This document shows positions 14,160-62,139 of a DNA stretch of 64,000 nucleotides, in pieces. Made by a program: the position numbers and the translations under genes. The stretch spans positions 3,720,001-3,784,000 of the forward strand of contig NW_024704768.1 in the NCBI RefSeq assembly GCF_018977255.1, written 5' to 3'. The notes beneath the pieces are model-generated. The model had not been told where the DNA came from. It saw nothing but the letters and a program-made list of their open reading frames with translations, and searched no databases. Source of the stretch: Callorhinchus milii (taxonomy: Eukaryota). Numbering within the stretch: the first letter of the stretch is position 1; the number at the start of each line of letters is the position of its first letter.

Positions 14160-16655
14160 ACTGTTGTCTACAGCTACAGAACAAATTATCTGCCCCGTTT
14201 GCATGCAAAATACACAGTCGGCAATAACCTATGAAGCGCTTTAAGACGTCTCGGACGATGTGATAAGGAGCTATGATCAAACCCGAGGATGATTCTAATT
14301 TTTTTTCCCTCTGACCAAACATTTCCTGGATTATACCTCTCTCTGGGTTAATACGCCAAATCTCCTCGCCTTTCGCTTACTCTTTCCGTTGATCCTGAAT
14401 TGAACTCTGTGAATCTGATGATTTTCTTTTGCCCACGTAGTTGTTGTTGTTTGCGTGGGGTGAAAGCGATGTTAAGGAGAGCAAAGCAGAAGCATAGTTG
14501 TGTATAGGCATTGATTTTATGGTTCATTGTCCCTTAGATGTGGCCCTTTGAATTTAGCTGATAACGTGAATCAATGAATTAATTCTGTGGTATTGGATCA
14601 AACAAAGTCTGGTATTTAAAGGACACACCTTTGAACAACGTCTTTACTATGTCAACATGTCTGGTTCTGCTTGTCTCGTTCTAACGAGTGCTTGATCCTT
14701 CTGACGAGGTGTCAATCCGACGTTCTCTCTCTGTCCCCGGCTGGACCTTTAAGGATGCCACACTGTGGGAGAGGGAGGGAAAGAGAAGGGAGTCATTGTG
14801 TTAGGAGGACGTCTTCGCAGGATTTACTGTGAAGTGTAATGACTGTGCTTTCTTAGCTCATCGGAAATACGAGCGCTGTGTTTTNNNNNNNNNNNNNNNN
14901 NNNNNNNNNTGTAAGTAATGCCTTGGAGATGTTTGCAGTTTACTCACACGTACACACCCTCTCGCTTGCCAGGAAAGAGCGCTCTATGTTCAAGGACTGA
15001 ACATCAACAGCCCTTTGGGGTAGTGACTTCCATACATTCACCGCCCTAGCGCCTTGGGACGTCCTCTCGACCTGACAGGCGCTTTACAAATGTAATTTTA
15101 TTGTTGTTGTTCACCCGGCCGTAAGCAGGAAGCCGGTTGTTAGTCAATCGGTGGATGGCTTTTCTGCAGATAATAATCCCTTTTTAAGCAAAAAACTTAG
15201 GTCACCCAATCCACGACTGTTTGTGGGACGCTGCTGTGAGAAATTGGCTGCCAAATTTCGCCTGCAAAGTACACAGCCAATTCACTTTATAGTATATTCT
15301 GTGAAGCTCTTTGAGACGTCTCGAAGACGTGATTAGATGCTGCAATCAAATGTAAATATTATCATGCTTGTGTCACCTGATTCATACACCGACTGTCATT
15401 ACTCAGGAATGTTCCGATTCCCTGACAGATAGTTATTTCACAGAATCTGCCCACAATGTGATCCTTGGAAAGAAATTCCAGCTGGTTACGATTGGCAGAC
15501 GAGTAGGTCTGTGATGTTTGCCCAGTGCGAGGGGCGCTATATACGTACAAGTTGTTGTTGCAGTGGTGGTGATAGAAAGGAGAGGGAGGGTTCGTAAACA
15601 CAGAGAGCGAGGGAGAAAGAGGGAGAGCGCGGGAGAGAGAGAAAGAAACAAATGCTTAAAGCCGTACCTAATCCTCTGTCAGTAACGTTGCTGCTGAATC
15701 ATCATCATAATAATTAATGAATAACAGTCACAATCCTCTGGTTTGATCCAGGGCCTCTCATCGCACCTTTGAGTCGCCTCTCAAAGGGCTTCCGCGGGAT
15801 ACGCCGCACAGTGTAGTGACTGTGCGTGTCTTCGAGGTGCGGAAATTTAAATCTGCTTTCATTTCTCGCCGAAATCGAAACCTTTGCCGCTTTTAATCCA
15901 GTCTCAGCCTTACTATTAATTCTAATAATAATGAGATTTGTCACGGCGGCTTTCGCATCAGGAGGACTCCCACACACCCCCCCCCCACCCCCCCACCCCC
16001 AAAGTGCCCGCCAGGACAACGCTGTGTGTTTTTTGTGGTCGAACACGGCAATGTTCCACCAGCACAGAGCCAAAACGGGCTCAGGGCTCAGACCGGTGAG
16101 AAGTCGGGAGGCCGGCGGTGGTGATGGGGGGGGGGGGGGAATCCCCTGCTGTTCATTTCCTTCCCCCGCCAACGCTCTCTCTCTCTCTCTCTCTCTCTGC
16201 TGTCACACACAGGCCCTGAGCTGTCAGCCGCTCCACAAGGTTTCACTCCGCACTGTGCATCCGTCCCCGTCCCCCGTCCCCCCCCCCGGTCAGGGTTAGA
16301 GACGCAGTCTCTCTACACTGGACCGGCAGTGTTCCTGGCTGGGGGGGGGGGGGTGTGCGTGTGTGTCTCTGAGGGTGTGTGTGTGTGTGTGTGTGGGGGG
16401 GAATTGCCCGGCCCGAGGCTGTGGTGACCTCAGAGCTGCTGTGGTTTGAGTGTGTGGGAGGGCGGGGGTGTGAGTGTTATATTACCCCCCCCACCCCGCC
16501 CACCCACCGCCCACTGTACACAGCCTCAGGAAGTGGGGGCTGTGCCACAAGCAGCTCCGGGAAATCCCAGGCTGACTGCGAGTGAGGTGGTGGGGGGGGG
16601 GGGGGGGCAGCGTGTGTGGGGGCGAGGGGAGGGGGGCGCTGTGTATAATTCAACT

Positions 16656-16744
16656 TTACCCCCCCCCCACCCCGCTACGAGCTGGCTCTGGTCTCCTGCT
16701 TGCCCTTCGTCCCCTCCGCTCCACCACGAGCCAGTCACTACGCC
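16656..16744 (-). CDS. NAB2: Possible terminal coding exon of NAB2
   Basis: ttcag|GG phase-1 acceptor, RSDWLVVERRGRRASRRPEPARSGVGGG*; only weak resemblance to the NAB2 C-terminus. Confidence 0.3.
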
Positions 16745-17023
16745 CTGAAGCTTTGGGACTTTCTCTCCCCCCCCGATCCCTCCGTCTCGCCCCACCCGCC
16801 ACCCCCCCCCACCCCCCTTTCCTCTCTTTTAGCTCACGACTGAAGACCACCCTCTTCGACCGTCCTTACGGTCACCCCTACCCCCACCCCCACCACCGGC
16901 TTGGCCTCAGGCTCCGCCACCGTCAAGCACCCCGAGACTCTGGCTCGCGCGAAGGGCGCCGTGTAAAGGCAAGTTGTTGTCGTTGTTGTCGTCGTCGTTG
17001 CGTAGGGCGCGAGGTTTACCCAC

Positions 17024-17141
17024 CGTGCGTGTTGGCGCCCGGGCTCCCCTCTGATTGGCCGCTGCTGTGCTCCGCCCGGTCCTGGCCGCACCCCTCGTGG
17101 GCGGGACTCTGAGGCTCCGACCCCTCACCCCCCGACACGAC
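17024..17141 (-). CDS. NAB2: NAB2 internal exon (low-complexity region after LKQE)
   Basis: tttttcgtggcaaag|GTC..G|gtgggt, 118 bp, phase 0 to 1; VVSGGEGSEPQSPAHEGCGQDRAEHSSGQSEGSPGANTH. Confidence 0.6.
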
Positions 17142-17377
17142 CTTTGCCACGAAAAACACACACGCACGCACAGTCACTACACCTTCCGGGCGTGGTGCGC
17201 GCGCGTGTTCCCCCCCCCCCAACCCCCGTGAAGCGCTTTGTGACGTCTCGAAGGTACAAGTTATAATACAAGACGGGTTTGGGGTGAAATCTCCCAAAGG
17301 TTCGGTGGGGAGAAGGCGGTGGTGGGGGTGGGGGGGCGCGGGGGAGAGAGGGTGGGGGTAACCCCCGATCTTCTTAC

Positions 17378-17429
17378 CTCTTGTTTCAGCCTCTTGTCTC
17401 GTGGGGGACTTGTCTCCTCTGGGCTTGAT
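17378..17429 (-). CDS. NAB2: NAB2 short exon
   Basis: tttcag|A..GAG|gtaag, 52 bp; SSPEETSPPRDKRLKQE aligns with mammalian NAB2 LHPEELGGPPLKKLKQE. Confidence 0.85.
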
Positions 17430-17885
17430 CTGAAAGTGATATAAATTCACCCGAAAATGAACCAAAGAAAACCTCACAGCTTTCGGTAACTTGGGGACAG
17501 TCCATAGTCCCTTCTCCCCCACAACCCCCCCCCACCCCACCCCCCACCACACCCCACCCCCCGCCTAACAAGTGGGTCTAAACGTCCGGGCGGGCAGTGT
17601 GTGTCTCTCGTAACCACTGGAACTCCATCCCACAGCCCCTCCACCTCGCCCCCCTCCACCCTCACCCTCGCCTCCTTGAAGGCGCGCCTCAGGACCCTCC
17701 TCTTCGACTGCCTGCACCCTCGGTCGCCCTCCTGCCCCCTCTCCCTCCCTCCCTACCTTTCACCCCCCCACCCCCCTGATCCCAACCCCCCAGCTCGGGT
17801 GCAAAGCCCTCGTTGTCCAGCGCCTTGGGACGCCTTGGGAGGAGGGGGGTGGGGGCGATAAGTGTAACTTGTTGTCGTGCGTTAC

Positions 17886-18424
17886 CTGCGGGTCCTGTCC
17901 GGGTGAGGGTAAGCGCAGTCCCGTGCCGCCGGGCGACAGACGGAGAAGAGATCGACTCGACGCATCACCAGGGTCCGGTCTTGGAGGCACAGCCGAGTAT
18001 TGGCGGGGGCGGTGGGTGGGGGTCCTTCGCTGGCCGGGGAGCGGGGCGGGGGCTGGGAGTCGTGTCCGGCGCTGGTGCCCCCCGACCCCGACTCCGCCGT
18101 CTTCCTCTTGAGCTGCCGGGGGCCGTGGCCGTGGTGGTGGGGGAGGGGGACGCCGGGCAGGGGGAGGGTGGGGAGGGGCTGGCTGAGGAGACCGGGGTTC
18201 GAGCCCCACTCTCGCAGGGCCTTCTGCAGCCGCCGCACGTGGAGGGGTTTATTGGCCATTCCCACCAGCACCATGATCTCCAGGAACTCGGCCTCCCCCG
18301 CCTCACACAGCTGGCGGACATCGTCCCCCCCCTGCTGGATGAAGGTCTGGTAGTAAGCCAACAGGTTCGCTCGCTGCAGCAGTCGGTACAGCTGGAGCTC
18401 CCCCAGGCTGGTGGGTAGGGTCAT
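17886..18424 (-). CDS. NAB2: NGFI-A binding protein 2, main exon (NCD1 plus the tail of NCD2)
   Basis: [66 protein letters not shown] is NCD1; acceptor at 18431; ends [30 protein letters not shown]|gtaacg. Confidence 0.93.
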
Positions 18425-19164
18425 CGCTGGCCTGGGGGTAGAGGGGGAGGGGAGGTGGGAGTGGGGGGTTTGGGTGGGGAAACAGAGAGAGGTAGGAGGG
18501 GGAGAGATGGAGGAAGGACGGGGGGGGGGGGTGTGGGAGTGAGAGATAGGGGGTAGGCGGAGAGAGTTGGGAAGGAGGGGGAGGTGGGGAACAGAGTGGA
18601 GGAGGGGGAGAGAGAGAGATGGGGGAGAGAAAGGGGGGGAGGAACAGAGGAGAAGGGAGAGATGGGGGAGACAGTGGGGCGGGGGACGGGGACATAGAGG
18701 AGGAGGGAGAGAAGGTGGAAGGGGGAGAGATGGAGGAGGAGAGAGGTGGAACAGACCGGGGAGGTGGGGGCGGGGGCGGGGGGGAAGGGAGAGATAGGGG
18801 AGAGGAGAGATGTGGGAATGAGAGAGGGGGGGGAGAGTAGGGGAAAAAGGAGGAGAGAGGTGGGGGGGGGGGAGGGGGGGGTGAAGAGAGGGGGTGAAGG
18901 GGGAGAGAGAAAATAGACATACGTTACATTCCTGAAATTCTGCCTCGAAATCTGTGCTCAGAATTGTGGTGAATTCTTAACTTTGTTTTAAATTGTNNNN
19001 NNNNNNNNNNNNNNNNNNNNNNNNNNNNNNNNNNNNNNNNNNNNNNNNNNNNNNNNNNNNNNNNNNNNNNNNNNNNNNNNNNNNNNNNNNNNNNNNNNNN
19101 NNNNNNNNNNNNNNNNNNNNNNNNNNNNNNNNNNNNNNNNNNNNNNNNNNNCCACGGCTGTTCT

Positions 19165-23188: not shown

Positions 23189-23360
23189 CTCGGGGTCGGG
23201 GCTGTGGCGGTGGCGGTGGCGGTGGACGGGACAGATCGGCGCCGGAAGGCGATGGGGAGTTGAGTGCGAGTTGTTGTTTGGAGAACGAAGAAGACGGAGA
23301 CGCGACGACTCACAGTGTCCGTCCGATCCGGGACTGTGATGGGGTTCCCGGGGGTCCGTG
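23189..23360 (-). other. NAB2: Probable NAB2 first (5' UTR) exon / CpG island
   Basis: CpG-rich unique sequence ending GAG|gtac next to an N gap, with a second possible donor ACT|gtgagt near 23313; lies head-to-head with NEMP1. Confidence 0.45.
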
Positions 23361-24568
23361 TGTCTGTGTCTCTCTCTCTCTGTGTCTCTCTCTCTCTCTC
23401 TCTCTCTGATTAGGGATTGTATCGATTTGTTGCCAAACGGTATCGATTTGGTTCCAAACGGTATCTCTTCGCTCTGCGATTGTATCGATTTGTTGCAAAA
23501 TTGTATCTATTGGCTCTGGGACTGTGTCTCTGTCNNNNNNNNNNNNNNNNNNNNNNNNNNNNNNNNNNNNNNNNNNNNNNNNNNNNNNNNNNNNNNNNNN
23601 NNNNNNNNNNNNNNNNNNNNNNNNNNNNNNNNNNNNNNNNNNNNNNNNNNNNNNNNNNNNNNNNNNNNNNNNNNNNNNNNNNNNNNNNNNNNNNNNNNNN
23701 NNNNNNNNNNNNNNNNNNNNNNNNNNNNNNNNNNNNNNNNNNNTGTGTNNNNNNNNNNNNNNNNNNNNNNNNNNNNNNNNNNNNNNNNNNNNNNNNNNNN
23801 NNNNNNNNNNNNNNNNNNNNNNNNNNNNNNNNNNNNNNNNNNNNNNNNNNNNNNNNNNNNNNNNNNNNNNNNNNNNNTTGTGTTGGCTCTAACGGCGGAG
23901 ATTCCCGGCTCGGTGTCGCCTCCCACGGGGGGCGGAGTGGGGGGAAAGGGGGGGGAAAGGGGGGGGGGGGGGGGGGAGTGGAGCTGAATATGACGCGTGT
24001 CCGTCCGTGGGAGGAGAATCGGGGGCGGAGAGAGGGGGGGGGGCGGCTCTCAGCCAAGTCAGCCCGACCCAAACCCAGGCTCAACCCCGGGGGGAGGTGT
24101 TCACACCCCCCCCCCCACCCCCCCACCCCACTATGCCCCCCCTCCCCCACTACCCCACAGCCACAGCCTCTCTGATCTCCTTCATTTTCTTCCTTGAATC
24201 AACCAAAAACATTCTATTTCACTTCATTCTGTGTCCCCACTTACCCATCCTCAGGCAGGAGTGGGTGTGGGGGGGGGATTTTCCCCCTAATGGTGGGTGG
24301 GGGGGAAATCCGCCATCCACCCCCACACAAACACACCAAACCCCCATTTTTTTAAAAAAAATTGAAACAAAATTGAAAAAAAGACCCTTCTCACCTCCCC
24401 AGCTCCTCGCCCCAACCCCCCCCCCCCATCACCTCCCCTCCCGCCACACTCATCGCCCGACGTACGCACTTCCTCCAAAGCGCTTCACGCCATACACCGC
24501 GGAGCGGAGTGACTGTGTATCTTGGGGCGAAACGCCAATCGCGCACAGCGGGGTCAATCCCCCCTTCC

Positions 24569-24599
<31 letters not shown>

Positions 24600-25669
24600 A
24601 CACATACACACACACAACCGTGGGTTGAAGCGACCGATTTATTATTACCGTTTTCTTTTTTAAGGGAATTAATGATTAGCCCAGGAATCCGATCCGACAG
24701 TCCGCGAACAGCCGGGTTCCTGCTCACTACAAGGAGTGCGGAGTAAGGAAACTTGGCTCAAGTGTCGCCCTCTGCCCGGGAATCGAACCTGGGTCCTCTC
24801 TCCTGTGAGGAGAGTGCTCTTAGCAACAGGACTCCACTTCCAGAATTCCTCTATATAAACCAGGATTAATCTGCCTTCACCCTGGCTCCTCTCTCTCCCC
24901 CCTTCCCCCCCCCCCCCCCTACACTCTTCTATCCTCGTCGTAATTGTCGGGATGACGTCTCAAAGCACTTGACTTGGCTGGTAGCCTGGCCCGGAGGGGG
25001 TTGGGTGTGTGCTGGGGCGGGCGGGCGGGTGGTGGTATGTGGGGTGGGGTGGGGTGGGGTGGAGCGCGCGGGGGGGTGGGGGGAAGGAAGGAGACAAAAA
25101 GTGTGGTTGCTGAGAGACTTTTCAGATGTTCAATCGATGCGAAACACAAGGTTATTATCAAGTTCTTTTTGGAAACGAAAGGCACTATACAAATGTAATT
25201 GTGCTGTTGATGTTGTTGTTGTTGTATCATGGCCGGTATCTGTCCATCTCCCCTTGTACCCACTCTCTACACTCTCCCCCCCCCCTCTCTCCCCCCCACC
25301 CCCCACCTCTCCCTCTCTTGTCTGAGGTTATCTTGTCTGAGGATGATCAGTGTTGTTTGTTTCTAAAACGAACGAGATAGATTTTTGCTCGAAAATAATA
25401 TCTGGGGGGTGGGGGTGGGGGGGGGGGGGGGGGCTACAGTGTATAGTTTGGGGACACGACACCTCAAGCGACAGCCAGGATGAAGGGCAGGAGGCGAACT
25501 AGATGGACCTTGGTCTTCTTTCGCTTCATAGCAAATTCTTATGTTCTTATGATGTTGGCGGGTGTGTGTGTGTCTGGGGGGGGGGGATGGGGGGGGGCGG
25601 GGAGGAAGGAGGAAGCATTAGCAGGGTTGAACCCTGTCCAATCCACCCCCTCAAATCTCACCAGTTCCT

Positions 25670-26060
25670 TCCCTTTCCCTCCGCACAATAAACTCCAGCT
25701 GCTGCTCTGCTCTGCACTGACCCGCAGGCTGTTACCATTAACGTGTGTTTCAGTTTCCTCGCGCTCGTCTTCAAATCCCTTCGCGCCCTTCCAACTCCCT
25801 ACCACTCCCACCTGCTCACTCCCCCAACCCACTCCCCGCAGCTTCCGCTTGACTGGCTCCGGCCTCCTGCTTGTCCCTCGTATCAAAACCAAGGTTGTCC
25901 CGTCGTCGGTGGCCGCACTTTCAGCCACTGCTCTTGTCGCTCTCACCCTCAATCCCTCCGCCTTCCCTCCTCTCTCTCCTTCCTCTTCGACCGTGCCTAC
26001 GGTCACCTCCCCCTGGCCCCCCCCGACTCCACCTCTGTCTGGGACGCTGCGTCAATACAA
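25670..26060 (+). mobile_element. L2-like LINE 3' fragment
   Basis: TCAGCCACT...CCTCTTCGACCGTGCCTACGGTCACC tail; related copies at ~12870-13030, ~16750-16980, ~17600-17880, and reversed at ~13150-13380, ~43760-43980, ~51430-51720, ~55200-55430, ~58300-58620. Confidence 0.65.
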
Positions 26061-26856
26061 ATAATTAATAATACAGAGGTTAAAATAATTATCCTTCAGC
26101 CCTTCTGATTTGAGCTTTACGACTATCTGAACAGGCACAGACAGGGAGCCTGGTTTAATAATAATAATAATTAATAACCCTTGTATTTGATGTAATGCCT
26201 TATCACGTCTTCGAGACGTCTCAAAGCGCTTCACAGAATGTACTGTAAAGTGTAGTGACTGTATATTTTGTGGGCGAAACGCGGTAGCGCACAGCAGTGT
26301 CCCCACAAACACTCGTGGATTGAGCGACCAAATTATTATTTTAATGTATTTTTAAGGGATTATTGTTATCTTATCCGAAAGACGTAACCTCCGACAATAT
26401 GGGGACACCCTCCCACCCCTCATACCCCCCCGACACTTTGCTGGAGCATCAGTACAGACTGTGAGTTCATTGTTGCCGATGTGTGGGTGGGGTGAGGTCA
26501 GTCTGGGGGGGGGTGGGGGAGAAGGTGCTCGACCCTGCAAACATCTGACCCCAGAGGCGAGAGCATGAGTGTATAAGCCACAACCTTAAGTTGAAGCTGA
26601 ACTCGGTTACATACAACAAGAGAAACAATGGAGCCGGTCACACACATACACACAGTCACAGACACACAGACACAGACACACACACACACACACACACACA
26701 GCAAAGGAAGCAATAAACAGAACAATTAAAGCGAATTAACATTCGCATTGTGTTTGGGATTCTAAATTTAGCGTCGCAGGTCTCATCTCCCTGATATATT
26801 CCAGCGACAGGCTATTTCCGGAAGATCTATGATAACTCTCCCTCCTGCTCCACACA

Positions 26857-26889
<33 letters not shown>

Positions 26890-27469
26890 CCACTCTGTGA
26901 CGTGATCCTCACCGCCCACGGCCCTCCGGGCGACGCTACTCATTTGTGGACGTTGAGCTGTCTTCAGCCGCCCACTCGCTTCTTTCAAGGGACCAAACCG
27001 GGGCCCGGAGCAGAAACTCGTTCATTACCCAACTTGGGCCGCGTAAAGGTTTCAAAGCACGAGATCTGTGAAGCATAATACGCTGTTTCACTTAATCGTT
27101 TAAAACCGTGTCCTTCCCGTCTGCGTTGGGGCTCAGTAACCGGCGCGGCTCAGTCAGGAGTCCTATCCACAACAGCCCTTCGCATTTGATCACGTCCTCG
27201 AGACGGCTCAGAGCGCCTCGCGGGGCATGCGCCGTAAAGTGTAGTGACTGTGCGTTTAGCGGCGCGGATTGAAGCGGCCAAACCGTCGCCGTCGGCGTTT
27301 TTTTTTTTGCCGGCGATTTTTTTTCTCTTCTTTTTTTTTCTCTCTCTCTCTTGCGTTGATACACACCGCCCGGAAAACGCACAGTCACTACACTTCACGG
27401 CGGGATTGGGACCCTTTGATCCTCTGATGGGTCAAATCCGAGGGTTATTATTGTTGTTATTGATGATTC

Positions 27470-27930
27470 TGCAGCTGTCAATCAGACATCCCGCCCCCTC
27501 CCCTCCCCCCGCCTCGCGATTGGGCGATTGGCCGCTGATTGGCGTTCACGGCGACCAATCAGAACCCGCTGACTGCCCGCACGGGAGGGGGCGTGGTGGG
27601 ACGGCGGTGGCGTCCGCTGATTGGTCGCAGCGGCTGTCAGTCAAACCGAGGGGCGCCGCCCACGGCTGCTCAGGAGCTCGCCCCGCCCCGCCCAGGTCAC
27701 GCTCCCATTGGCCGAGGCGGATCCCAGTCGAGGTCCGGGGCAAGCGCTGATTGGTGCACGGTGCTGTCAGTCAGGGCGTGGAGTCCCCGCCCTGCGAAGG
27801 GGCAGCCGCTGATTGGCGAAGTGCGCGGTCAGTCAGGGCGTGAAAGCCCCGCCCTGCGAGGGGCAGCCGCTGATTGGCGGACGGCGCTGTCGGTCAGGGA
27901 GCCGAGCCCCCGCCCCCCCGCAGCCAATGG
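27470..27930 (+). promoter_or_regulatory. NEMP1 CpG-island promoter (copy 1) with about 10 CCAAT boxes
   Basis: Repeated GCTGATTGG, CTGTCA(A/G)TCA and CCCGCCC motifs directly upstream of the ATG. Confidence 0.8.
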
Positions 27931-28038
27931 CGGGAGGGATGAATGGCCGCCGCGGGCTGGTGGCTCCGGGCCCGGGTTGGGCGCTGTACGCGGCGGCCTG
28001 GCTTTCAGGCCTGGTCCTGGCTCAGGCCGCGGCCTCAG
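27927..28038 (+). CDS. NEMP1: NEMP1 exon 1 (signal peptide), copy 1
   Basis: MAGGMNGRRGLVAPGPGWALYAAAWLSGLVLAQAAAS, G|gtaacg; mammalian NEMP1 also begins MAGGM. Confidence 0.85.
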
Positions 28039-28756
28039 GTAACGACGGTCTCTCCTCCCTCCCTCCCTCCCTCCCCGCCGGGCCGGGCCGGGCCCGGGCT
28101 TCCCCCCTTTCCCTCTCTGCCCCCAACCCGAGCCCCAGGCTTCAGGAGGTCTCCGAGGCCCGGCCCCTGTCTGCAACATCAGCCCCAATCATTACCATTA
28201 TAATCAATAATAATAATAATAATCAATAATAATAATCTTCGAGACGCCTCACATTCCGTGTTGAACTGAGACCTAAGATTCCCCCCATCCACACCCCCCC
28301 CTCCCACAGCACAGCCCCCACCCCCACAGCACACACCACTCACCCCCCCCACAGTACACCCCCCCCCCACAGTACATTCCCCCCCCACAGTACACCCCCC
28401 CCACAGTACACACACCCCCCCCACAGTACACACCACACACCCCCCCACAGTACACCCCCTACAACACACACCACACCCCCCGCCACAGAACACAACACTC
28501 ACACCCCCCCCACAGTACACCCCCTACAACACCCCCCCCCCACAGTACACACCCCCACAGCACACAACCACACAACAACAACAAGATTCCATTTATAAAG
28601 CGCCTTTCACGTCAGGAGGACGTCCCGAGGCGCTGACACACCCCCCCACACCGCACAGCACAGCCACCCCCACGGCACCCCCCCCCCCCACTCCACACAC
28701 ACCACACCCCCTTGGAATAATTTACTCCTTCGAATCATAACATAACATAATATTTT

Positions 28757-28845
28757 GCAGTCCTGTAGCTCAGTGGTTAGAGCACTGACCTCACCAGCGG
28801 GACACCAGGCAGGTGGGCGAGTTTCCTTACTCCACACACACAGCC

Positions 28846-28876
<31 letters not shown>

Positions 28877-29080
28877 CCCCTCCAAAACAAAACAGTAATA
28901 AATTGGTCATTTTCAATCCACGGCTGTTTGTGGGGCAGACGCTGCTGTGAGCAATCGGCCGCCGCGTTTCTCCCACAAATATACGGTCAATTCACTGTAC
29001 AGTCTGTTCCGTGAAGCGCTTTGAGACGTCGAGAAGACGTGAAAAGCGCTATATCAAATGCGAGGATTACTATTGTTGTT
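28757..29080 (+). mobile_element. tRNA-derived SINE in NEMP1 intron 1 (duplicate at ~38217-38540)
   Basis: GTCCTGTAGCTCAGTGGTTAGAGCACT head, family body, GGATTACTATT tail. Confidence 0.85.
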
Positions 29081-29946
29081 GTTGTACCGTAATAGCAGTG
29101 ATTAATCAGTATTGCCTGAAAGGCTGGTGGAAAAGGATTTGATATCACAAGTTTTAAGGGAGAATTATTTGGGGAGGACAAGTTTGCGGGGCTATTGGGG
29201 GGAGAGAGAGGGAGGGGGGGGGGGAATGAGAGAGGGGGAGTGGGGTTGATTTGGAAGCTCTATTCAAAGAGCGGCACAGACACGATGGGCCGAATGACCA
29301 CCTTCTGTGCCGTATAATTCTATAATTCTGTTCACAGTAAACTCCTGATCAGCTCCAAGGCAAAAGGGGCTTTTTTGGGGGGGAACGGTGGGGGGGGGGG
29401 GGGGAAATGGCCAACCCTGTGTCTTGACACGCGTGCGGAGACCCATCATCACCGTTGCTTAAGAATTTCCAGACCCGGCTGAGAACTCACGCTGAAAGTT
29501 CCCAGAGATAGATTGTCGGAAAGGAATGCCCTCTCTCTCCCTCCCTGGTGACCTGATTCCGGAGAGTATTAGGCGCAGGTTGGCAGGAGCCAAGGGCTTG
29601 GGGTGGGGTGGTTGGGAATCCCAGAGTGTGCGTTAGGGGGTAACTGCTGGAGTCTGACCAGATAAAACCACGTAGGTTGGCCATTGAGAGAGCGAGAGCG
29701 CCGTCTGGCCAAAGCTTTCCCGCTGCTTGGACCACCCTCCCCGTTGGGGCTTTCACTCGCAGGGTTAAAGAGGAGGATTAACGGGAGTCATCAGGACTGG
29801 CGGCCGGTATACTGACAGCAGGATGACTTAGGCAGCGCTGACGCGTTAAGACGGGGCGCAGCGATCGGGGGGGGGGGGTTCACTGGAGCTCATCGGTCGG
29901 GGTTCAGTTCGCGGCTTAATTTGCGACCGTTGCTTTCGTGCTGCAG

Positions 29947-30059
29947 GAGGGAGCGCGTCGATCGTGGAGGATGTCGTCTACCAGTATTTTGGGGCAAAGA
30001 GCTTTTGCTACAAAAACACCCTGGTGCCCGGATGGAGAGAGATCTGGACTCGGTTACGG
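29947..30059 (+). CDS. NEMP1: NEMP1 exon 2, copy 1
   Basis: cag|GA..CGG|gtgaga, 113 bp; KSFCYKNTLVPGWREIWTRLR, compare FCYTNVLIPKWHDIWTRIQ. Confidence 0.9.
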
Positions 30060-30257
30060 GTGAGACTGGGGAGGTCACCCCCCCCCCCCCCCACCCCCTT
30101 CCTCTGGTTCGGGGTCATGCTCCGCCACAGGCAAGAGTCCTGGGCCGCTCCCCTACGCGAGGGGCGCTGTGTAAATACAAGCCGTTGTCGGTGTGACTTG
30201 GGTGGGGGGCGCGTGGGAGGGTGGGGGTGGGGCTCAGTAAGCATGCCTTGTACTCTA

Positions 30258-30271
30258 GCGCCCTCTAGTGG
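30258..30271 (-). promoter_or_regulatory. CTCF motif in NEMP1 intron 2 (duplicate at 39737-39750)
   Basis: GCGCCCTCTAGTGG is the reverse complement of CCACTAGAGGGCGC, a near-perfect CTCF core. Confidence 0.7.
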
Positions 30272-30385
30272 AAGGAAGCAGTTACTGCAACCCACTACTC
30301 CCACCCCTTCACTTTTGACACCATAAATAAATAACTGGATCGATTGATTTGATGATCAAATCTATCGATAATCAGATCTTTCTCG

Positions 30386-30422
<37 letters not shown>

Positions 30423-30427
30423 CCCAG

Positions 30428-30650
30428 ATCCGAGTGAACAGCTCCCAGGAGTTTAAAGTGAAGGAGTCGGAGGATGTGACACAGCTGCAAAGCCCCGGGG
30501 TCTGGGGTTGGTTCACGGAGGTGGTGTCGTTGATGTTGAAGGAGAGAGTCAACGAAACCCACATCAACGTCGACCTGTTCAGCAGCAAAACCTGCTTCAG
30601 AGTGGAGCCGAACAACGCGAGCGCGGTGTATCGTGTGCTGCTGGCACGCC
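30428..30650 (+). CDS. NEMP1: NEMP1 exon 3, copy 1
   Basis: cag|ATC..C|gtgagt, 223 bp; IRVNSSQEF..KERVNETHINVDLFSSKTCFRVE. Confidence 0.9.
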
Positions 30651-31367
30651 GTGAGTTTCCTGTCAGTAAGATACCGGAGATGATCCCCTTTAAGAGGTTT
30701 CATGCCCTGCGATTGAAAGGGGGCGCGGGGGGGGGGTGAATTCAGAACCGATCTGGGGAAACACTACTGTGAGGGAGGGTTAAACGTATGGAACAGGCTC
30801 CAGCAGAGAGAGTTGATTCTTTCAAAAGCAAAATGAGATGAATTTTAGGATATTTTGAAATAATCTCTGGGGATTACAGTGTATAGTTCTGGACAGGACA
30901 TGTGTAGGTGACTGCTAGAATGGTGGAAAGCGAACTGGATGGACCTTGGTCTTTCGTCTCGCAATTCTCACGCGTTCTGCGTTTCCTGCAGTTGTGTGTC
31001 ATTGAGCATAGGACACTGGTGCAAACAAATGCACACGCACATTCCCTCCTCCTGTGCTCCATCCTAGCCTCTATCCTGATCCCATTAGCTGGTGTTCTGT
31101 GCCTCAACTCCTTGTACAAAGTGGCCTCTGTTGTTCAGATCAATACCATCTCTGTAAAGCGCTTTGAGATGCCTCCTGTGTCAAGTGCTGCAGGAACAGG
31201 AGTAAGCCTGTTTCGCGCCATTCTGTTAGATCAAGGCTGATCTGTGCCTCAACTCCAATTACCCACCTTTGCCCCGTATCCCTTAATACCCTGACCTAAC
31301 GAAACATCAATCCATTTCGGTCTTGAAAATGTGAATGGATCCAAGCAAAACCCACAGCCTTTTAGGG

Positions 31368-31398
<31 letters not shown>

Positions 31399-31879
31399 TT
31401 CCAGATTTCCGCTACCCAGTATAAGCGCAAGTAGCTGATTGAATTTGCCTTTAGTTTCACAATATGGGCATCTTTCTTGCTTTGGAATTGAACAGTGTCT
31501 CACTTGTTAGGACACAAGTGAAGACGTCATATATGCACAAATGCAGCTCTTCGTACTTAAGGCCTCTGCTTAAACGTCTTGCTAGAAATTAGACGTTGAG
31601 CTGTCTCAGCACAGACTCAGCCTGGAACCTTGTCACTGTGCCTCAGCCACTCACTGGATATACCCTCTGATCTGAGGAGGGGGAGAGGAGAACGCCTTTA
31701 ATTCCTTTTGGTGTGTCCCTCAGTTGGATTAAGAGAGGCAATTGCTGACCTTTGCAGCCACCGCCACACGCTTTGTCCATCGAGCGAGTTGGTAGCCGTG
31801 TTCAGCTGTGTGTTGCCGTGCCTTGTGGCTGTGAGGGATTCTCGGAGCTAATGTGTGCTGCTCTCTCTCTGGTTTACAG

Positions 31880-31952
31880 GCTTTGATCCGCAACTCATTG
31901 CCATCTTTGTCTGTGGGTTGTTGCTGTTTTTCTACGCCGAAGCTTTAAGCAG
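31880..31952 (+). CDS. NEMP1: NEMP1 exon 4, copy 1
   Basis: tacag|GC..AG|gtgagg, 73 bp; FDPQLIAIFVCGLLLFFYAEALSR. Confidence 0.9.
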
Positions 31953-32257
31953 GTGAGGTTAGACTAATAATAAAAATAATCATTGCATTTGACATAGTGC
32001 CTTATCGCGTCTCTGAGACGTCTCAAATTGCCTCACATGATATACTATAAAGTGTAGTGACTGTGTAGTTTGTGGTGAAGGAAATTTTGACACGGTCCCT
32101 GATGACCCTCCCCCTCTCTCCCGCCACCTTCCCCCCCCCCCTTCCCACCCCCTCCCTTCCCGCCCCACCACCTGCCCCCCGAAGAAAATAACTAGTCTTT
32201 GGGGTGGGGGAGGAAGAATCCAGTGGCCTTCAATCTTGAATCTATCTTTCCCTTCAG

Positions 32258-32351
32258 GAGCCAGCTTTTCTTCTACACCTCAGGAATCAGTGTGGGAATA
32301 TTGGCCTCCCTCATCATTGTCATCTTTATCCTGTCACGCCTTCTGCCCAAG
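32258..32351 (+). CDS. NEMP1: NEMP1 exon 5, copy 1
   Basis: ttcag|G..AAG|gtacgt, 94 bp; [31 protein letters not shown]. Confidence 0.9.
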
Positions 32352-32483
32352 GTACGTGTGATCGTTGGTTGTTTCCTCTGTTCGGAGCAGAGAAAGGGAG
32401 GTTGTGCATCTGTTCAGTTCCACTCGTCACCTTTTAATGAGAAACACCTTTGCTGACTCACTCTCTCCCCCCCCGCCTTTCAG

Positions 32484-32598
32484 AAAAGCTCGCTGTACCT
32501 GCTGATAGCTGGCGGCTGGTCTCTCTCGCTCTACCTAATCCAGGTCACACTGAGGAACCTGCACTTTCTGCTACGGGAGCATTGGCAGTACGTGTTGG
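32484..32598 (+). CDS. NEMP1: NEMP1 exon 6, copy 1
   Basis: ttcag|AAA..G|gtgagt, 115 bp; KSSLYLLIAGGWSLSLYLIQVTLRNLHFLLREHWQYVL. Confidence 0.9.
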
Positions 32599-32783
32599 GT
32601 GAGTTGATCCCAAATAATAATAAGGCGCTGGATCCAATGCGAGGATGATTATTGCGCTTTCGAGACGTCTCAAAGCGCTTCACAGGATACACTGCAAAGT
32701 GGAGTGACTGTATATTTTGTGGGGCGAAACGCGGCAGCCAATTGCACCCAGCGACGTCTCGACAAACAGCCGTGGATTGAAAG

Positions 32784-32873: not shown

Positions 32874-33060
32874 GTAAGGAAACTTGCCGAAGGTCTCACC
32901 CCGTCTGGGACTCGAACCCGGGTCCTCTCGCTTGAGAGGCGAAGGCTCTAACCACTGAGCTACGGGACACTAATGGGAGGCCCAGGGTCCGTGGTGATCG
33001 GAGGAAGAATGGGGCGGAGAGGTTTGTTGTGTCTCAAACGCAGTGGCTTTGTGTCTGCAG

Positions 33061-33167
33061 GTCCACCCCGACAAGAACCCACACCCCAGGTCCGAGGAGG
33101 CGTTTAAGGTAGTGAGAGCGGCTTGGGACATCGTCAGCAATCCCGAGAGGAGGAAGGAGTACGAGAT
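33061..33167 (+). CDS. DNAJC14: DNAJC14 exon with the HPD motif (displaced)
   Basis: tgcag|GTC..AT|gtaagc, 107 bp; VHPDKNPHPRSEEAFKVVRAAWDIVSNPERRKEYE. Confidence 0.9.
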
Positions 33168-33869
33168 GTAAGCAATTCGGATCCCCCGGCAATGTTAGCC
33201 TGTTACACACAGCCACCCGCTTCGCTAAAGGATTGTATTCTGTGAGTGTGTATGTGTGTGAGTGAGTGTTGTGTGTTTGTGTGTGTGTGTGTGTGAGTGA
33301 GTATGTGTGTGTGTGTAAGTGTGCGCGTGAGTGAGTTTGTGTATATGTGTGAGTGAGTGTGTGTGTGAGTGAGTGTGTGTGCGTGAGTGAGTGTGTGAGT
33401 GAGAGTGTGTGTTTGAGTGAGTTTGTGTACATGTGTGAGTGAGTGTGTGTATGTGTGATTGTGTGTGTGAGTGTGTGTGTGTGTATGTGTAAGTGTGTGT
33501 GTGTGAGTGAGTTTGTGTATATGTGAGTGTGTGTGAGTGAGTGTGTGAGTGAGTTTGTGTACATGTGTGAGTGAGTGTGTGTATGTGTGAGTGTGTGTGT
33601 GTGTATGTGTAAGTGTGTGTGTGTGAGTGAGTTTGTGTATATGTGTATGTGTGAGTGAGTGTGTGAGTGAGTGTGTGTGAGTGAGTGTCAGCCTGGCTCA
33701 GTGGTATCACTCTCACAACAACTTTATAAAGCGCCCTTCAGGCCGGGTGGCGTCTCGGAGTGCTTTAAAGTATTTCGCCCAAAGCGCTTCACGCCATACA
33801 CCGCGGAGCGGAGTGACTGTGTATCTTGGGGCGAAACGCCAGTCGCACAGCAGGGTCAATCCCCCCTTC

Positions 33870-33900
<31 letters not shown>

Positions 33901-36132
33901 ACTACACACACACACACACCGTGGGTTGAAGCGACCGATTTATTATTACCGTTTTCTTTTTTAAGGGAATTAATGATTAGCCCAGGAATCCGATCCGACA
34001 GTCCGCGAACAGCCGGGTTCCTGCTCACTACAAGGAGTGCGGAGTAAGGAAACTTGGCTCAAGTGTCGCCCTCTGCCCGGGAATCGAACCTGGGTCCTCT
34101 CTCCTGTGAGGAAGTGCTCTTAGCAACAGGACTCCACTTCCAGAATTCCTCTATATAAACCAGGATTAATCTGCCTTCACCCTGGCTCCTCTCTCTCCCC
34201 CCTTCCCCCCCCCCCCTACACTCTTCTATCCTCGTCGTAATTGTCGGGATGACGTCTCAAAGCACTTGACTTGGCTGGTAGCCTGGCCCGGAGGGGGTTG
34301 GGTGTGTGCTGGGGCGGGCGGCGGGTGGTGGTATGTGGGGTGGGGTGGGGTGGGGTGGAGCGCGCGGGGGGTGGGGGAAGGAAGGAGACAAAAAGTGTGG
34401 TTGCTGAGAGACTTTTCAGATGTTCAATCGATGCGAAACACAAGGTTATTATCAAGTTCTTTTTGGAAACGAAAGGCACTATACAAATGTAATTGTGCTG
34501 TTGATGTTGTTGTTGTTGTATCATGGCCGGTATCTGTCCATCTCCCCTTGTACCCACTCTCTACACTCTCCCCCCCCCTCTCCCCCCCACCCCCACCTCT
34601 CCCTCTCTTGTCTGAGGTTATCTTGTCTGAGGATGATCAGTGTTGTTTGTTTCCAAAACGAATGAGATAGATTTTTGCTCGAAAATAATATCTGGGGGTG
34701 GGGGTGGGAGGGGGGGGGGGCTACAGTGTATAGTTTGGGGACACGACACCTCAAGCGACAGCCAGGATGAAGGGCAGGAGGCGAACTAGATGGACCTTGG
34801 TCTTCTTTCGCTTCATAGCAAATTCTTATGTTCTTATGATGTTGGCGGGTGTGTGTGTGTCTGGGGGGGGGGGGGGGGGGCGGGGAGGAAGGAGGAAGCA
34901 TTAGCAGGGTTGAACCCTGTCCAATCCACCCCCTCAAATCTCACCAGTTCCTTCCCTTTCCCTCCGCACAATAAACTCCAGCTGCTGCTCTGCTCTGCAC
35001 TGACCCGCAGGCTGTTACCATTAACGTGTGTTTCAGTTTCCTCGCGCTCGTCTTCAAATCCCTTCGCGCCCTTCCAACTCCCTACCACTCCCACCTGCTC
35101 ACTCCCCCAACCCACTCCCCGCAGCTTCCGCTTGACTGGCTCCGGCCTCCTGCTTGTCCCTCGTATCAAAACCAAGGTTGTCCCGTCGTCGGTGGCCGCA
35201 CTTTCAGCCACTGCTCTTGTCGCTCTCACCCTCAATCCCTCCGCCTTCCCTCCTCTCTCTCCTTCCTCTTCGACCGTGCCTACGGTCACCTCCCCCTGGC
35301 CCCCCCCGACTCCACCTCTGTCTGGGACGCTGCGTCAATACAAATAATTAATAATACAGAGGTTAAAATAATTATCCTTCAGCCCTTCTGATTTGAGCTT
35401 TACGACTATCTGAACAGGCACAGACAGGGAGCCTGGTTTAATAATAATAATAATTAATAACCCTTGTATTTGATGTAATGCCTTATCACGTCTTCGAGAC
35501 GTCTCAAAGCGCTTCACAGAATGTACTGTAAAGTGTAGTGACTGTATATTTTGTGGGCGAAACGCGGTAGCGCACAGCAGTGTCCCCACAAACACTCGTG
35601 GATTGAGCGACCAAATTATTATTTTAATGTATTTTTAAGGGATTATTGTTATCTTATCCGAAAGACGTAACCTCCGACAATATGGGGACACCCTCCCACC
35701 CCTCATACCCCCCCGACACTTTGCTGGAGCATCAGTACAGACTGTGAGTTCATTGTTGCCGATGTGTGGGTGGGGTGAGGTCAGTCTGGGGGGGGGGGGG
35801 GAGAAGGTGCTCGACCCTGCAAACATCTGACCCCAGAGGCGAGAGCATGAGTGTATAAGCCACAACCTTAAGTTGAAGCTGAACTCGGTTACATACAACA
35901 AGAGAAACAATGGAGCCGGTCACACACATCCACACAGTCACAGACACACGGACACAGACACACACACACACACACACACAGCAAAGGAAGCAATAAACAG
36001 AACAATTAAAGCGAATTAACATTCGCATTGTGTTTGGGATTCTAAATTTAGCGTCGCAGGTCTCATCTCCCTGATATATTCCAGCGACAGGCTATTTCCG
36101 GAAGATCTATGATAACTCTCCCTCCTGCTCCA

Positions 36133-36167
<35 letters not shown>

Positions 36168-37227
36168 CCACTCTGTGACGTGATCCTCACCGCCCACGGC
36201 CCTCCGGGCGACGCGACTCATTTGTGGACGTTGAGCTGTCTTCAGCCGCCCACTCGCTTCTTTCAAGGGACCAAACCGGGGCCCGGAGCAGAAACTCGTT
36301 CATTACACCCAACTTGGGCCGCGTAAAGGTTTCAAAGCACGAGATCTGTGAAGCATAATACGCTGTTTCACTTAATCGTTTAAAACCGTGTCCTTCCCGT
36401 CTGCGTTGGGGCTCAGTAACCGGCGCGGCTCAGTCAGGAGTCCTATCCACAACAGCCCTTCGCATTTGATCACGTCCTCGAGACGGCTCAGAGCGCCTCG
36501 CGGGGCATGCGCCGTAAAGTGTAGTGACTGTGCGTTTAGCGGCGCGGATTGAAGCGGCCAAACCGTCGCCGTCGGCGTTTTTTTTTTTGCCGGCGATTTT
36601 TTTTCTCTTCTTTTTTTTTCTCTCTCTCTCTCTTGCGTTGATGCACACCGCCCGGAAAACGCACAGTCACTACACTTCACGGCGGGATTGGGACCCTTTG
36701 ATCCTCTGATGGGTCAAATCCGAGGGTTATTATTGTTGTTATTGATGATTCTGCAGCTGTCAATCAGACATCCCGCCCCCTCCCCTCCCCCCGCCTCGCG
36801 ATTGGGCGATTGGCCGCTGATTGGCGTTCACGGCGACCAATCAGAACCCGCTGCTGCCCGCACGGGAGGGGGCGTGGTGGGACGGCGGTGGCGTCCGCTG
36901 ATTGGTCGCAGCGGCTGTCAGTCAAACCGAGGGGCGCCGCCCAGGTCTGCTCAGGAGCTCGCCCCGCCCCGCCCAGGTCACGCTCCCATTGGTCGAGGCG
37001 GATCCCAGTCGAGGCCCGGGGCAAGCGCTGATTGGTGCACGGTGCTGTCAGTCAGGGCGTGGAGTCCCCGCCCTGCGAAGGAGCAGCCGCTGATTGGCGA
37101 AGGGGCAGCCGCTGATTGGCGGACGGCGCGGTCAGTCAGGGCGTGAAAGCCCCGCCCTGCGAGGGGCAGCCGCTGATTGGCGGACGGCGCTGTCGGTCAG
37201 GGAGCCGAGCCCCCCCCCCCGCAGCCA

Positions 37228-37338
37228 ATGGCGGGAGGGATGAATGGCCGCCGCGGCTGGTGGCTCCGGGCCCGGGTTGGGCGCTGTACGCGGCGGCCTG
37301 GCTTTCAGGCCTGGTCCTGGCTCAGGCCGCGGCCTCAG
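37228..37338 (+). CDS. NEMP1: NEMP1 exon 1, copy 2 (1-bp deletion, frameshifted)
   Basis: CGCGGCTGG versus CGCGGGCTGG in copy 1; 111 bp instead of 112. Confidence 0.7.
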
Positions 37339-39429
37339 GTAACGACGGTCTCTCCTCCCTCCCTCCCTCCCCGCCGGGCCGGGCCGGGCCCGGGCTTCCC
37401 CCCTTTCCCTCTCTCCCCCAACCCGAGCCCCAGGCTTCAGGAGGTCTCCGAGGCCCGGCCCCTGTCTGCAACATCAGCCCCAATCATTACCATTATAATC
37501 AATAATAATAATAATCATCAATAATAATAATCTTCGAGACGCCTCACATTCCGTGTTGAACTGAGACGTAAGATTCCCCCCACCCACACCCCCCCCCTCC
37601 CACAGCACAGCCCCACCCCCACAGCACACACCACTCACCCCCCCACAGTACACCCCCCCGCACACAACACTCCCCCCCCACAGTACCACCCCCCCACAGT
37701 ACACACCCCCACAGTACACACCCCCACAGTACACCCCCCCCCCCCACAGTACACACCACCCCACAGAACACCCTCCTACAACACACACCACACCCCCCAC
37801 AGCACACACCACTCACCCCCCCCACAGTATACCCCCCACAGTACACACCCCCTCCCCACAGTACACCCCCCCACAGTACACCCCCCTACAACACACACCA
37901 CCCCCCCACAGTACCCCCCCCCACAGTACACACACCCCCCCACAGTACACACACACCCCCCACACACACCCACTCACCCCCCCCCCCCCCCCCCAAAGTA
38001 CACCCCCCTACAACACACACCCCCACAGCACACAACAACGAGATTCCATTTATAAAGCGCCTTTCACGTCAGGAGGACGTCCCGAGGCGCTGACACACCC
38101 CCCCACACCCCACAGCACAGCCACCCCCACGGCACCCCCCCCCCACTCCACACACACACCACACCCCCTTGGAATAATTTACTCCTTCGAATCATAACAT
38201 AACATAATATTTTGCAGTCCTGTAGCTCAGTGGTTAGAGCACTGACCTCACCAGCGGGACACCAGGCAGGTGGGCGAGTTTCCTTACTCCACACACACAG
38301 CCTAATAATAATAATAATAATAATAATCCCCTCCAAAACAAAACAATAATAAATTGGTCATCTTCAATCCACGGCTGTTTGTGGGGCAGACGCTGCTGTG
38401 AGCAATCGGCCGCCGCGTTTCTCCCACAAATATACAGTCAATTCACTGTACAGTCACTGTTCACTGTTCCGTGAAGCGCTTTGAGACGTCGAGAAGACGT
38501 GAAAAGCGCTATATCAAATGCGAGGATTACTATTGTTGTTGTTATATACCGTAATAGCAGTGATTAATCAGTATTGCCTGAAAGGCTGGTGGAAAACGAT
38601 TTGATATCACAAGTTTTAAGGGAGAATTATTTGGGGAGGACAAGTGGGGCTATTGCGGGGAGAGAGAGGGAGGGGGGGGAGAGAGGGGATGGGGGTGATC
38701 AGGGCTACGGGGAGAGAGCGCGGGGGGAGTGGGGTTGATTTGGAAGCTCTATTCAAAGAGCGGCACAGACACGATGGGCCGAATGACCACCTTCTGTGCC
38801 GTATAATTCTATAATTCTGTTCACAGTAAACTCCTGATCAGCTCCAAGGCAAAAGGGGCTTTTTTGGGGGGAACGGGGGGGGGGGGGGGAAATGGCCAAC
38901 CCTGTGTCTTGACACGCGTGCAGAGACCCATCATCACCGTTGCTTAAGAATTTCCAGACCCGGCTGAGAACTCACGCTGAAAGTTCCCAGAGATAGATTG
39001 TCGGAAAGGAATGCCCTCTCTCTCCCTCCCTGGTGACCTGATTCCGGAGGGTATTAGGCGCAGGTTGGCAGGAGCCAAGGGCTTGGGGTGGGGTGGTTGG
39101 GAATCCCAGAGTGTGCGTTAGGGGGTAACTGCTGGAGTCTGACCAGATAAAACCACGTAGGTTGGCCATTGAGAGAGCGAGAGCGCCGTCTGGCCAAAGC
39201 TTTCCCGCTGCTTGGACCACCCTCCCCGTTGGGGCTTTCACTCGCAGGGTTAAAGAGGAGGATTAACGGGAGTCATCAGGACTGGCGGCCGGTATACTGA
39301 CAGCAGGATGACTTAGGCGGCGCTGACGCGTTAAGACGGGGCGCAGCGATCGGGGGGGGGGTTCACTGGAGCTCATCGGTCGGGGTTCAGTTCGCGGCTT
39401 AATTTGCGACCGTTGCTTTCGTGCTGCAG

Positions 39430-39542
39430 GAGGGAGCGCGTCGATCGTGGAGGATGTCGTCTACCAGTATTTTGGGGCAAAGAGCTTTTGCTACAAAAAC
39501 ACCCTGGTGCCCGGATGGAGAGAGATCTGGACTCGGTTACGG
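39430..39542 (+). CDS. NEMP1: NEMP1 exon 2, copy 2
   Basis: Same sequence and boundaries as copy 1. Confidence 0.88.
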
Positions 39543-39855
39543 GTGAGACTGGGGAGGTCACCCCCCCCCCCACCCCCTTCCTCTGGTTCGGGGTCATGCT
39601 CCGCCACAGGCAAGAGTCCTGGGCCGCTCCCCTACGCGAGGGGCGCTGTGTAAATACAAGCCGTTGTCGGTGTGACTTGGGTGGGGGGCGCGTGGGAGGG
39701 TGGGGGTGGGGCTCAGTAAGCATGCCTTGTACTCTAGCGCCCTCTAGTGGAAGGAAGCAGTTACTGCAACCCACTACTCCCACCCCTTCACTTTTGACAC
39801 CATAAATAAATAACTGGATCGATTGATTTGATGATCAAATCTATCGATAATCAGA

Positions 39856-39895
<40 letters not shown>

Positions 39896-39902
39896 TCCCC
39901 AG

Positions 39903-40125
39903 ATCCGAGTGAACAGCTCCCAGGAGTTTAAAGTGAAGGAGTCGGAGGATGTGACACAGCTGCAAAGCCCCGGGGTCTGGGGTTGGTTCACGGAGGTGGT
40001 GTCGTTGATGTTGAAGGAGAGAGTCAACGAAACCCACATCAACGTCGACCTGTTCAGCAGCAAAACCTGCTTCAGAGTGGAGCCGAACAACGCGAGCGCG
40101 GTGTATCGTGTGCTGCTGGCACGCC
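39903..40125 (+). CDS. NEMP1: NEMP1 exon 3, copy 2
   Basis: Same sequence and boundaries as copy 1. Confidence 0.88.
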
Positions 40126-40843
40126 GTGAGTTTCCTGTCAGTAAGATACCGGAGATGATCCCCTTTAAGAGGTTTCATGCCCTGCGATTGAAAGGGGGCG
40201 CGGGGGGGGGGGTGAATTCAGAACCGATCTGGGGAAACACTACTGTGAGGGAGGGTTAAACGTATGGAACAGGCTCCAGCAGAGAGAGTTGATTCTTTCA
40301 AAAGCAAAATGAGATGAATTTTAGGATATTTTGAAATAATCTCTGGGGATTACAGTGTATAGTTCTGGACAGGACATGTGTAGGTGACTGCTAGAATGGT
40401 GGAAAGCGAACTGGATGGACCTTGGTCTTTCGTCTCGCAATTCGCACGCGTTCTGCGTTTCCTGCAGTTGTGTGTCATTGAGCATAGGACATTGGTGCAA
40501 ACAAATGCACACGCACATTCCCTCCTCCTGTGCTCCATCCTAGCCTCTATCCTGATCCCATTAGCTGGTGTTCTGTGCCGCAACTCCTTGTACAAAGTGG
40601 CCTCTGTTGTTCAGATCAATACCATCTCTGTAAAGCGCTTTGAGATGCCTCCTGTGTCAAGTGCTGCAGGAACAGGAGTAAGCCTGTTTCGCGCCATTCT
40701 GTTAGATCAAGGCTGATCTGTGCCTCAACTCCAATTACCCACCTTTGCCCCGTATCCCTTAATACCCTGACCTAACGAAACATCAATCCATTTCGGTCTT
40801 GAAAATGTGAATGGATCCAAGCAAAACCCACAGCCTTTTAGGG

Positions 40844-40874
<31 letters not shown>

Positions 40875-41355: not shown

Positions 41356-41428
41356 GCTTTGATCCGCAACTCATTGCCATCTTTGTCTGTGGGTTGTTGC
41401 TGTTTTTCTACGCCGAAGCTTTAAGCAG
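41356..41428 (+). CDS. NEMP1: NEMP1 exon 4, copy 2
   Basis: Same sequence and boundaries as copy 1. Confidence 0.88.
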
Positions 41429-62128: not shown

Positions 62129-62139
62129 GTGAGTCACCG

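Follow-up and report, generated by a model that had tools for sequence, protein, structure and literature searches.

The stretch of elephant shark (Callorhinchus milii) DNA analyzed here, a window of 64,000 nucleotides, carries on its minus strand a NAB gene in which a single open frame runs from an ATG at 18424 to a splice donor at 17885 (Table 1). Pfam assigns residues 4-78 of the product to the SAM_NCD1 domain (E 4.6e-40, 135.9 bits) and limits the NCD2 match to residues 141-179, which correspond to profile positions 86-124/125 (E 6.1e-6, 26.7 bits). The product thus possesses the NCD1/SAM domain of a NAB corepressor, while profile positions 1-85 are absent, leaving it short of the whole NCD2 of a two-domain NAB corepressor. 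A prior sequence-only reading, whose annotated interval took in the remnant and part of the linker, had described an intact NCD1 followed by a linker of about 60 residues and the end of NCD2 in one frame, and both the open frame and the Pfam matches bear this out. Positions 14910-18996, which include the coding region, are free of N.

Table 1. Features of the NAB2 gene, numbered from the first letter of the window.
Feature	Position	Strand	Basis or remark
Fused exon (= exon 2 + exon 3 of other NAB genes)	17886..18431	-	Acceptor AG 18433-18432, ATG 18424; paralogue exon structure
NCD1/SAM domain, whole, residues 4-78	18191..18415	-	Pfam, AlphaFold2, fold search
Pro/Gly-rich linker, residues 79-140 (about 62 residues)	18005..18190	-	DNA contig across linker
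NCD2 remnant, residues 141-179, eroded	17888..18004	-	Pfam, AlphaFold2, site counts
Intron, 456 nt, GT-AG	17430..17885	-	Removed in contigs of runs X5 and X6
52-nt exon, LKQE motif at its end	17378..17429	-	Spliced contigs, frame
Intron, 236 nt, GT-AG	17142..17377	-	Removed in contigs of runs X5 and X6
Next exon	17016..17141	-	118 nt to likely GT donor 17023, or read-through to stop 17018-17016 (NCBI model)
Candidate non-coding exon 1 (putative, weak)	23189..23387	-	8-nt match, GT follows, CpG-rich

The genome holds two further NAB genes, on contigs C6 (NAB1) and C23, and in both of these the NCD2 core is followed by a phase-0 intron (2,914 and 2,064 nt, respectively) and then by a 134-nt exon 3. 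Core and intron are both missing at the matching place in the window gene, where similarity to the paralogues' exon 3 starts about 15 nt into that exon and the donor at 17885 lies in a register identical to that of theirs. As far as about residue 117 the linker can be aligned to shark NAB2, and the deletion joint falls somewhere within 18074-18005, that is, between residues 117 and 141; up to the start of the remnant, the protein is about 137 residues shorter than sawshark NAB2. These comparisons uphold the earlier proposals that the NCD2 core and the intron preceding the remnant are absent in N-free sequence, and that the downstream donor and 52-nt exon (17429-17378) remain in phase. GC3 is 0.86 in the window gene, as against 0.63 and 0.59 in the paralogues. 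Both RNA contigs extend 8 nt beyond the acceptor, and these 8 nt agree, with one difference, with the end of the candidate exon 1, whose 5' limit is a guess from the extent of the RNA contig. Of the 10 EGR consensus sites in the window, none falls within the probable promoter, a region interrupted by N gaps.

The short protein already has a database record, XP_042200093.1 (P0121, an NCBI NAB2-like entry of Callorhinchus milii), whose letters are identical to ours over the fused, 52-nt and next exons. Unlike our model, this entry leaves out 36 residues behind a GC donor, among them those that close the last NCD1 helix, and reaches its stop at 17018 by read-through. The NCBI model takes 108 nt at 18113-18220 as an intron with that GC donor, trimming the last NCD1 helix; among the joints listed, the GC donor is read through in both RNA-like runs.

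We identify the window gene as NAB2 by descent, on the evidence of trees and gene order. The trees were built on the columns kept by the window protein, the second without three invertebrates and one duplicate skate row. The gene lies within the NAB2 clade in both (support 99/96 in the first, 95/96 in the second) and, in the second, inside the shark/skate NAB2 clade (99/98). Paralogue mix-up was rejected by topology tests, both for a grouping with NAB1 (p-AU 0.003) and for one with the C23 gene (p-AU 0.002); a position outside sharks and skates, as in the species tree, is compatible with the data (p-AU 0.12). The window gene has the longest branch among NAB2, and its grouping with the skates (95/82 in the second tree, 94/76 in the first) is taken here to reflect long-branch pull or convergence or possibly, as far as sequence alone can tell, a shared origin. 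A glutaminase-NAB-NEMP-ORMDL order detected with Pfam is common to the window and to the NAB1 block on C6; no STAT match was found near the window NAB2. Together with the exon structure of the paralogues, these results confirm the earlier naming of the gene as a NAB2 with two exons fused in frame. The glutaminase, NEMP and ORMDL exons are the window's Pfam neighbors (neighbor stretches 500-1470, 32998-33168, 41734-44769, 50567-51920 and 61447-62661), to which a J-domain exon and a GDF11-like exon, so named from their translations, can presumably be added. An 8.4-kb stretch occurs twice in the window, at 24475-32781 and 33779-42259, with 96.6% identity; it doubles the NEMP exons, ends at a 25-N gap and is likely an uncollapsed haplotype.

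Elephant shark NAB2 has truly lost the NCD2 core and intron 2 through an in-frame deletion in the genome, and the gene is still spliced. We compared contigs from four (X1, X2, X5 and X6) of the ten runs holding the stretch; X5 and X6 come from one study, no run holding the stretch is recorded as RNA, and one organism is listed among the runs. In run X1, one 335-nt contig covers 17870-18204, and thereby the whole joint zone, with one differing letter and no gap; because this contig extends into the intron, X1 is likely DNA. The two contigs of run X2 (17865-18072 and 18072-18395) meet end to end without bridging. Run X5 joins 18065-17886, and run X6 joins 17997-17886, to 17429-17376 and 17139-17023 across GT-AG introns, and since the introns have been removed, these contigs represent spliced RNA. 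The X5 contig includes 70 nt of linker immediately ahead of the first conserved codons of the remnant, and both RNA-like runs leave a hole in cover at 18066-18153. Both X1 and X6 show a difference from the window at 18407 (G>A, at the third codon position of a serine, the sole allele seen in NCD1) and therefore carry another allele, in contigs that lose rare alleles and at a DNA depth of about 4-5. Whole-genome searches with the NCD2 profile and with sawshark NAB2, in each of which all six best candidates were scored, located the NCD2 core at two loci only, C6 and C23, and no stray core elsewhere in the genome. The preference expressed earlier for a real deletion therefore stands, with the addition that the deletion is transcribed (X5, X6), whereas the accompanying caveat that GC-rich sequence might have collapsed in assembly is contradicted by the gap-free X1 contig over 17870-18204 and the spliced X5 contig. 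Separately, a processed pseudogene or retrocopy, or an RNA-mediated origin of the whole gene, is ruled out by the two downstream introns, which are kept and spliced, the ancestral location and the open frame.

The portions of the gene that survive the deletion have fared very differently. From 16 reference NABs, we defined 62 invariant sites in NCD1, 30 in the NCD2 core and 14 in the NCD2 tail, and of these the window NAB2 keeps 58, none and nine, respectively (Fisher p 0.009 for retention in NCD1 vs the tail). As controls we used 111 of the best 120 NAB2-like protein matches, nine having been excluded as references, test rows or invertebrates; the controls include unnamed entries. All 111 keep 60-62 of the NCD1 sites, so that the window's 58 lies under every control; in the NCD2 core, 28-30 of 30 sites are kept in 106 of the 111 (27, 25, 23, 23 and 7 in the others), and in the tail all 14 are kept in 107 (range 13-14). 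These counts suggest that the tail of the window NAB2 has long been free of constraint and that NCD1 has not, though NCD1 would appear slightly relaxed; two of its four lost sites sit ahead of the first helix. The NCD1 changes Q26, R37 and V52 (18349-18269) are common to the window and skate NAB2, Mustelus also having R37, and may be due to convergence, mutation bias or shared origin.

Structure prediction draws the same line between the domains. AlphaFold2 returned a pLDDT block of 88-96 over residues 1-80, as against 49-51 in the remnant, and a fold search with NCD1 placed SAM domains at the top of its list, none at E<=0.001. In a model of sawshark NAB2, NCD2 forms seven helices over residues 192-318, for which 2YUF is a solved relative. 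The window remnant matches sawshark residues 278-317 only, without the first four helices and about half of the fifth, and has proline in place of an invariant residue in the last NCD2 helix. For these reasons, the remnant is predicted not to fold, while NCD1 is predicted to do so. Three EGR-like loci match the R1 stretch, namely L013 (C7), L014 (C28) and L015 (C13), and the two that were read, on C7 and C28, show a conserved R1 core; predictions of a complex between NCD1 and the EGR R1 stretch, run without alignments, scored 0.02 twice, a result that speaks neither way.

Beyond the earlier account of the locus, the genome contains a third NAB gene (G000:C23:7154563-7157520; L002, L003, L006, L010, L011) with a whole NCD1 and a whole NCD2. 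It branches outside NAB1 and NAB2 and matches the C-terminal repressor motif weakly (E 6e-4 at best). Its block carries ORMDL and STAT genes, as expected of a third duplicated block, and the gene is likely a genome-duplication copy. The whale shark has a counterpart (P0192/P0351) with a whole exon-2 core, and no other C23-like protein was present among the 350 proteins fetched. These observations suggest that vertebrates have a third NAB gene, apparently without a name as yet.

Loss or erosion of NCD2 also extends to the NAB2 of other cartilaginous fishes, again context that goes beyond the first description, and the comparison with orthologues proposed there finds NCD2 absent from skate NAB2, eroded in five sharks and whole in the sawshark (170 bits). 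Of the 30 core sites, the sawshark keeps 28, the horn shark 25, Mustelus 23, two catsharks 23 and 21, and the white shark 20, while skate NAB2 keeps 9 and 6; the NCD2 of NAB1 scores 186-187 bits in sharks and the elephant shark. All eight skate NAB2 proteins (from three named species and Logan entries) have an NCD1 match and no NCD2 match at E<=0.1, and skate NCD1 is at 58/62 despite the missing NCD2. The skate entries from Leucoraja, Amblyraja and Rhinoraja are gene models. Four shark models end after exon 2 (P0144, P0149, P0180 and P0186), and their tail counts of 0/14 are uninformative and were not scored as loss because one of them has a spliced counterpart that includes the tail (P0352). 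Skates retain scraps of the front of NCD2 and the elephant shark retains the back part, and because these remnants are opposite and the sawshark domain is whole, at least two losses are the simplest reading; judged from these sequences, NCD2 was likely lost from NAB2 at least twice, in the elephant shark lineage and in skates. No proteins of other chimaeras appeared among the best 120 matches of any of the three protein searches. In the literature searched, in which most subscription papers lay beyond reach, we found no account of NAB2 domain loss in cartilaginous fishes.

In mammals, NAB2 carries a further repression region in addition to NCD2. According to two reports, the C-terminal region of NAB2 binds CHD4 (PMC11554739, PMC2235890) and corresponds to exons 4-7 (PMC11554739). 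Two exons are present downstream of the fused exon, after which the RNA contigs leave the window sequence at 17023 and run 69 and 100 nt further onto unplaced sequence. Searches for a last exon in the window by tblastn with six proteins, together with a scan that gave 11 candidate acceptors, yielded nothing homologous, and tblastn found no match in the window to the C-terminal repressor motif of bony-vertebrate NAB2, a motif also missing from all three sawshark NAB2 isoforms. A C-terminal effector may nevertheless be encoded past 17023. The 52-nt exon closes, in frame, with a SUMO-type LKQE motif, in what we take to be the position of the SUMO site in NAB2. Among 118 NAB2-like proteins scanned, 62 have a motif of this type after the NCD2 tail (45 are without one and 11 were not scorable); the skate models stop at or just after the exon-2 remains, and the LKQE exon is absent from them.

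Compared with vertebrate NAB2, the window gene is alike in NCD1, exon phases, the 52-nt exon, tree position and neighborhood, and unlike in lacking NCD2 profile positions 1-85 and intron 2, the C-terminal repressor motif also not having been found in the window. Among its closest counterparts are the skate NAB2-like proteins of Leucoraja, Amblyraja and Rhinoraja, which likewise keep NCD1 with NCD2 unmatched; however, they retain an eroded exon-2 part of NCD2 and have lost the exon-3 part, the reverse of the elephant shark. A hagfish NAB1-like isoform X2 (P0190) likewise links NCD1 to the rear portion of NCD2 (profile 73-125), but its tail is conserved at 14/14 sites and it is a named isoform, such that exon skipping rather than genomic deletion is the likely cause. 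The medaka NAB2 entry P0003, in which an apparent out-of-frame reading replaces the NCD2 core, is probably a database error. In microProtein-type antagonists, an interaction domain is kept without the effector. Dominant-negative NCD1 point mutants act by losing EGR binding, the opposite lesion to that of the window NAB2. In other engineered dominant-negative NABs the interaction domain is kept and the effector lost or disabled, as with the non-SUMOylatable Nab described as dominant negative in one report (PMC8301837), although the window case is natural and germ-line.

What such a protein would do can be framed by prior work on the family. In the cited papers, NCD1 is stated to bind the EGR R1 domain (PMC2132876, PMC3084842), NCD2 is assigned a role in transcriptional regulation (PMC2768752), NAB2 is stated to homodimerize and to heterodimerize with NAB1 (PMC12393881), and SUMOylation is stated to support Nab repression (PMC8301837, PMC12065886); PMC11377751 and PMC10584935 give nothing further about NCD2. 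We propose, with confidence evenly divided for and against, that the short NAB2 competes with full-length NABs, holding R1 sites or multimer slots without an NCD2 effector and thus dampening NAB1 and the third NAB. By way of NCD1 it would likely still dock on other NABs as well as on EGR factors and, without a folded NCD2, would dilute repression instead of delivering it. The deletion would be old and fixed; NAB1 and the third NAB would have taken over the work of NCD2, freeing that domain in cartilaginous-fish NAB2; and selection would retain NCD1, the short protein tuning EGR output by R1 competition or through effector-less multimers. The sequence-only reading had likewise suggested a dominant-negative-like modulator of EGR factors, a fair suggestion that is helped by the failure to find the C-terminal repressor exon in the window; yet with LKQE retained the protein may repress to some degree, its last exon is unplaced, and NCD1 might just as well serve to tether full-length NABs. 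EGR output may also move in either direction, since two of these papers state that NABs can co-activate (PMC12393881, PMC2768752).

The tethering possibility, in which the deletion is real and NCD1 recruits full-length NAB1 or the third NAB to EGR, with the SUMO site or a last exon supplying the effector, strikes us as somewhat unlikely. It draws on the heterodimers of NAB2 with NAB1 mentioned in one report (PMC12393881), on the in-frame LKQE motif, of a type found in more than half of the proteins scanned, on the extension of the transcript past 17023 and on the further repression region of mammalian NAB2. Against this, the skate models are without the LKQE exon, the C-terminal repressor motif has no match in the window and is absent from the sawshark isoforms as well, and the position of the SUMO site is presumed. 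It is unlikely, too, that the gene is simply a redundant third copy in slow decay with no distinct job, its frame surviving by chance or through weak selection against toxic products. The two whole paralogues, the graded erosion of the core from sawshark to skates, the GC-rich setting, the long branch and an NCD1 below all 111 controls would suit such decay, and the last two of these weigh against the competitor reading. However, 5 of 14 sites are gone from the remnant and the linker can be aligned only in part, as against only 4 of 62 sites gone from NCD1; frame and splice phases are intact over three exons; skates hold NCD1 at the same count without NCD2; and the sole NCD1 allele seen is at the third position of a serine codon. 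Finally, although the window has 14 N runs and the 8.4-kb near-duplicate, cover at the locus is thin, the family offers a precedent in the apparently frameshifted medaka entry and X1-X4 could include the assembled sample, it is very improbable that the assembly collapsed GC-rich sequence or that the assembled animal had a private deletion, given the unbroken X1 contig over the whole joint zone with its difference from the window at 18407, spliced contigs from a second study, a genome without a stray NCD2 core, and a decayed remnant that implies an old loss.

What is new, then, is a real loss of most of NCD2 in elephant shark NAB2, likely repeated in a second lineage, in a gene that is NAB2 by descent and lacks one of the two domains of its family. 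NCD2 is nearly unchanging in bony vertebrates and its exact job is poorly defined, and the gradation found in nature, with the domain whole in the sawshark, eroded in five sharks and absent in skates and the elephant shark, provides ready alleles for examining the role of NCD1 alone. Such alleles are relevant to EGR-controlled processes, e.g. myelination, and to NAB2-STAT6 tumors, in which the NAB2 part steers the fusion and NAB1 is a partner. If only decay is involved, this is still a clean domain loss after duplication, of modest interest. A broader proposal, possible if doubtful, is that three NAB genes were kept from the vertebrate duplications and that NAB2 turned into an NCD1-only antagonist at least two times, in chimaeras and in skates, such that the EGR-NAB2 loop, which is negative feedback in mammals, would in these fishes have become a brake on repression or positive feedback.
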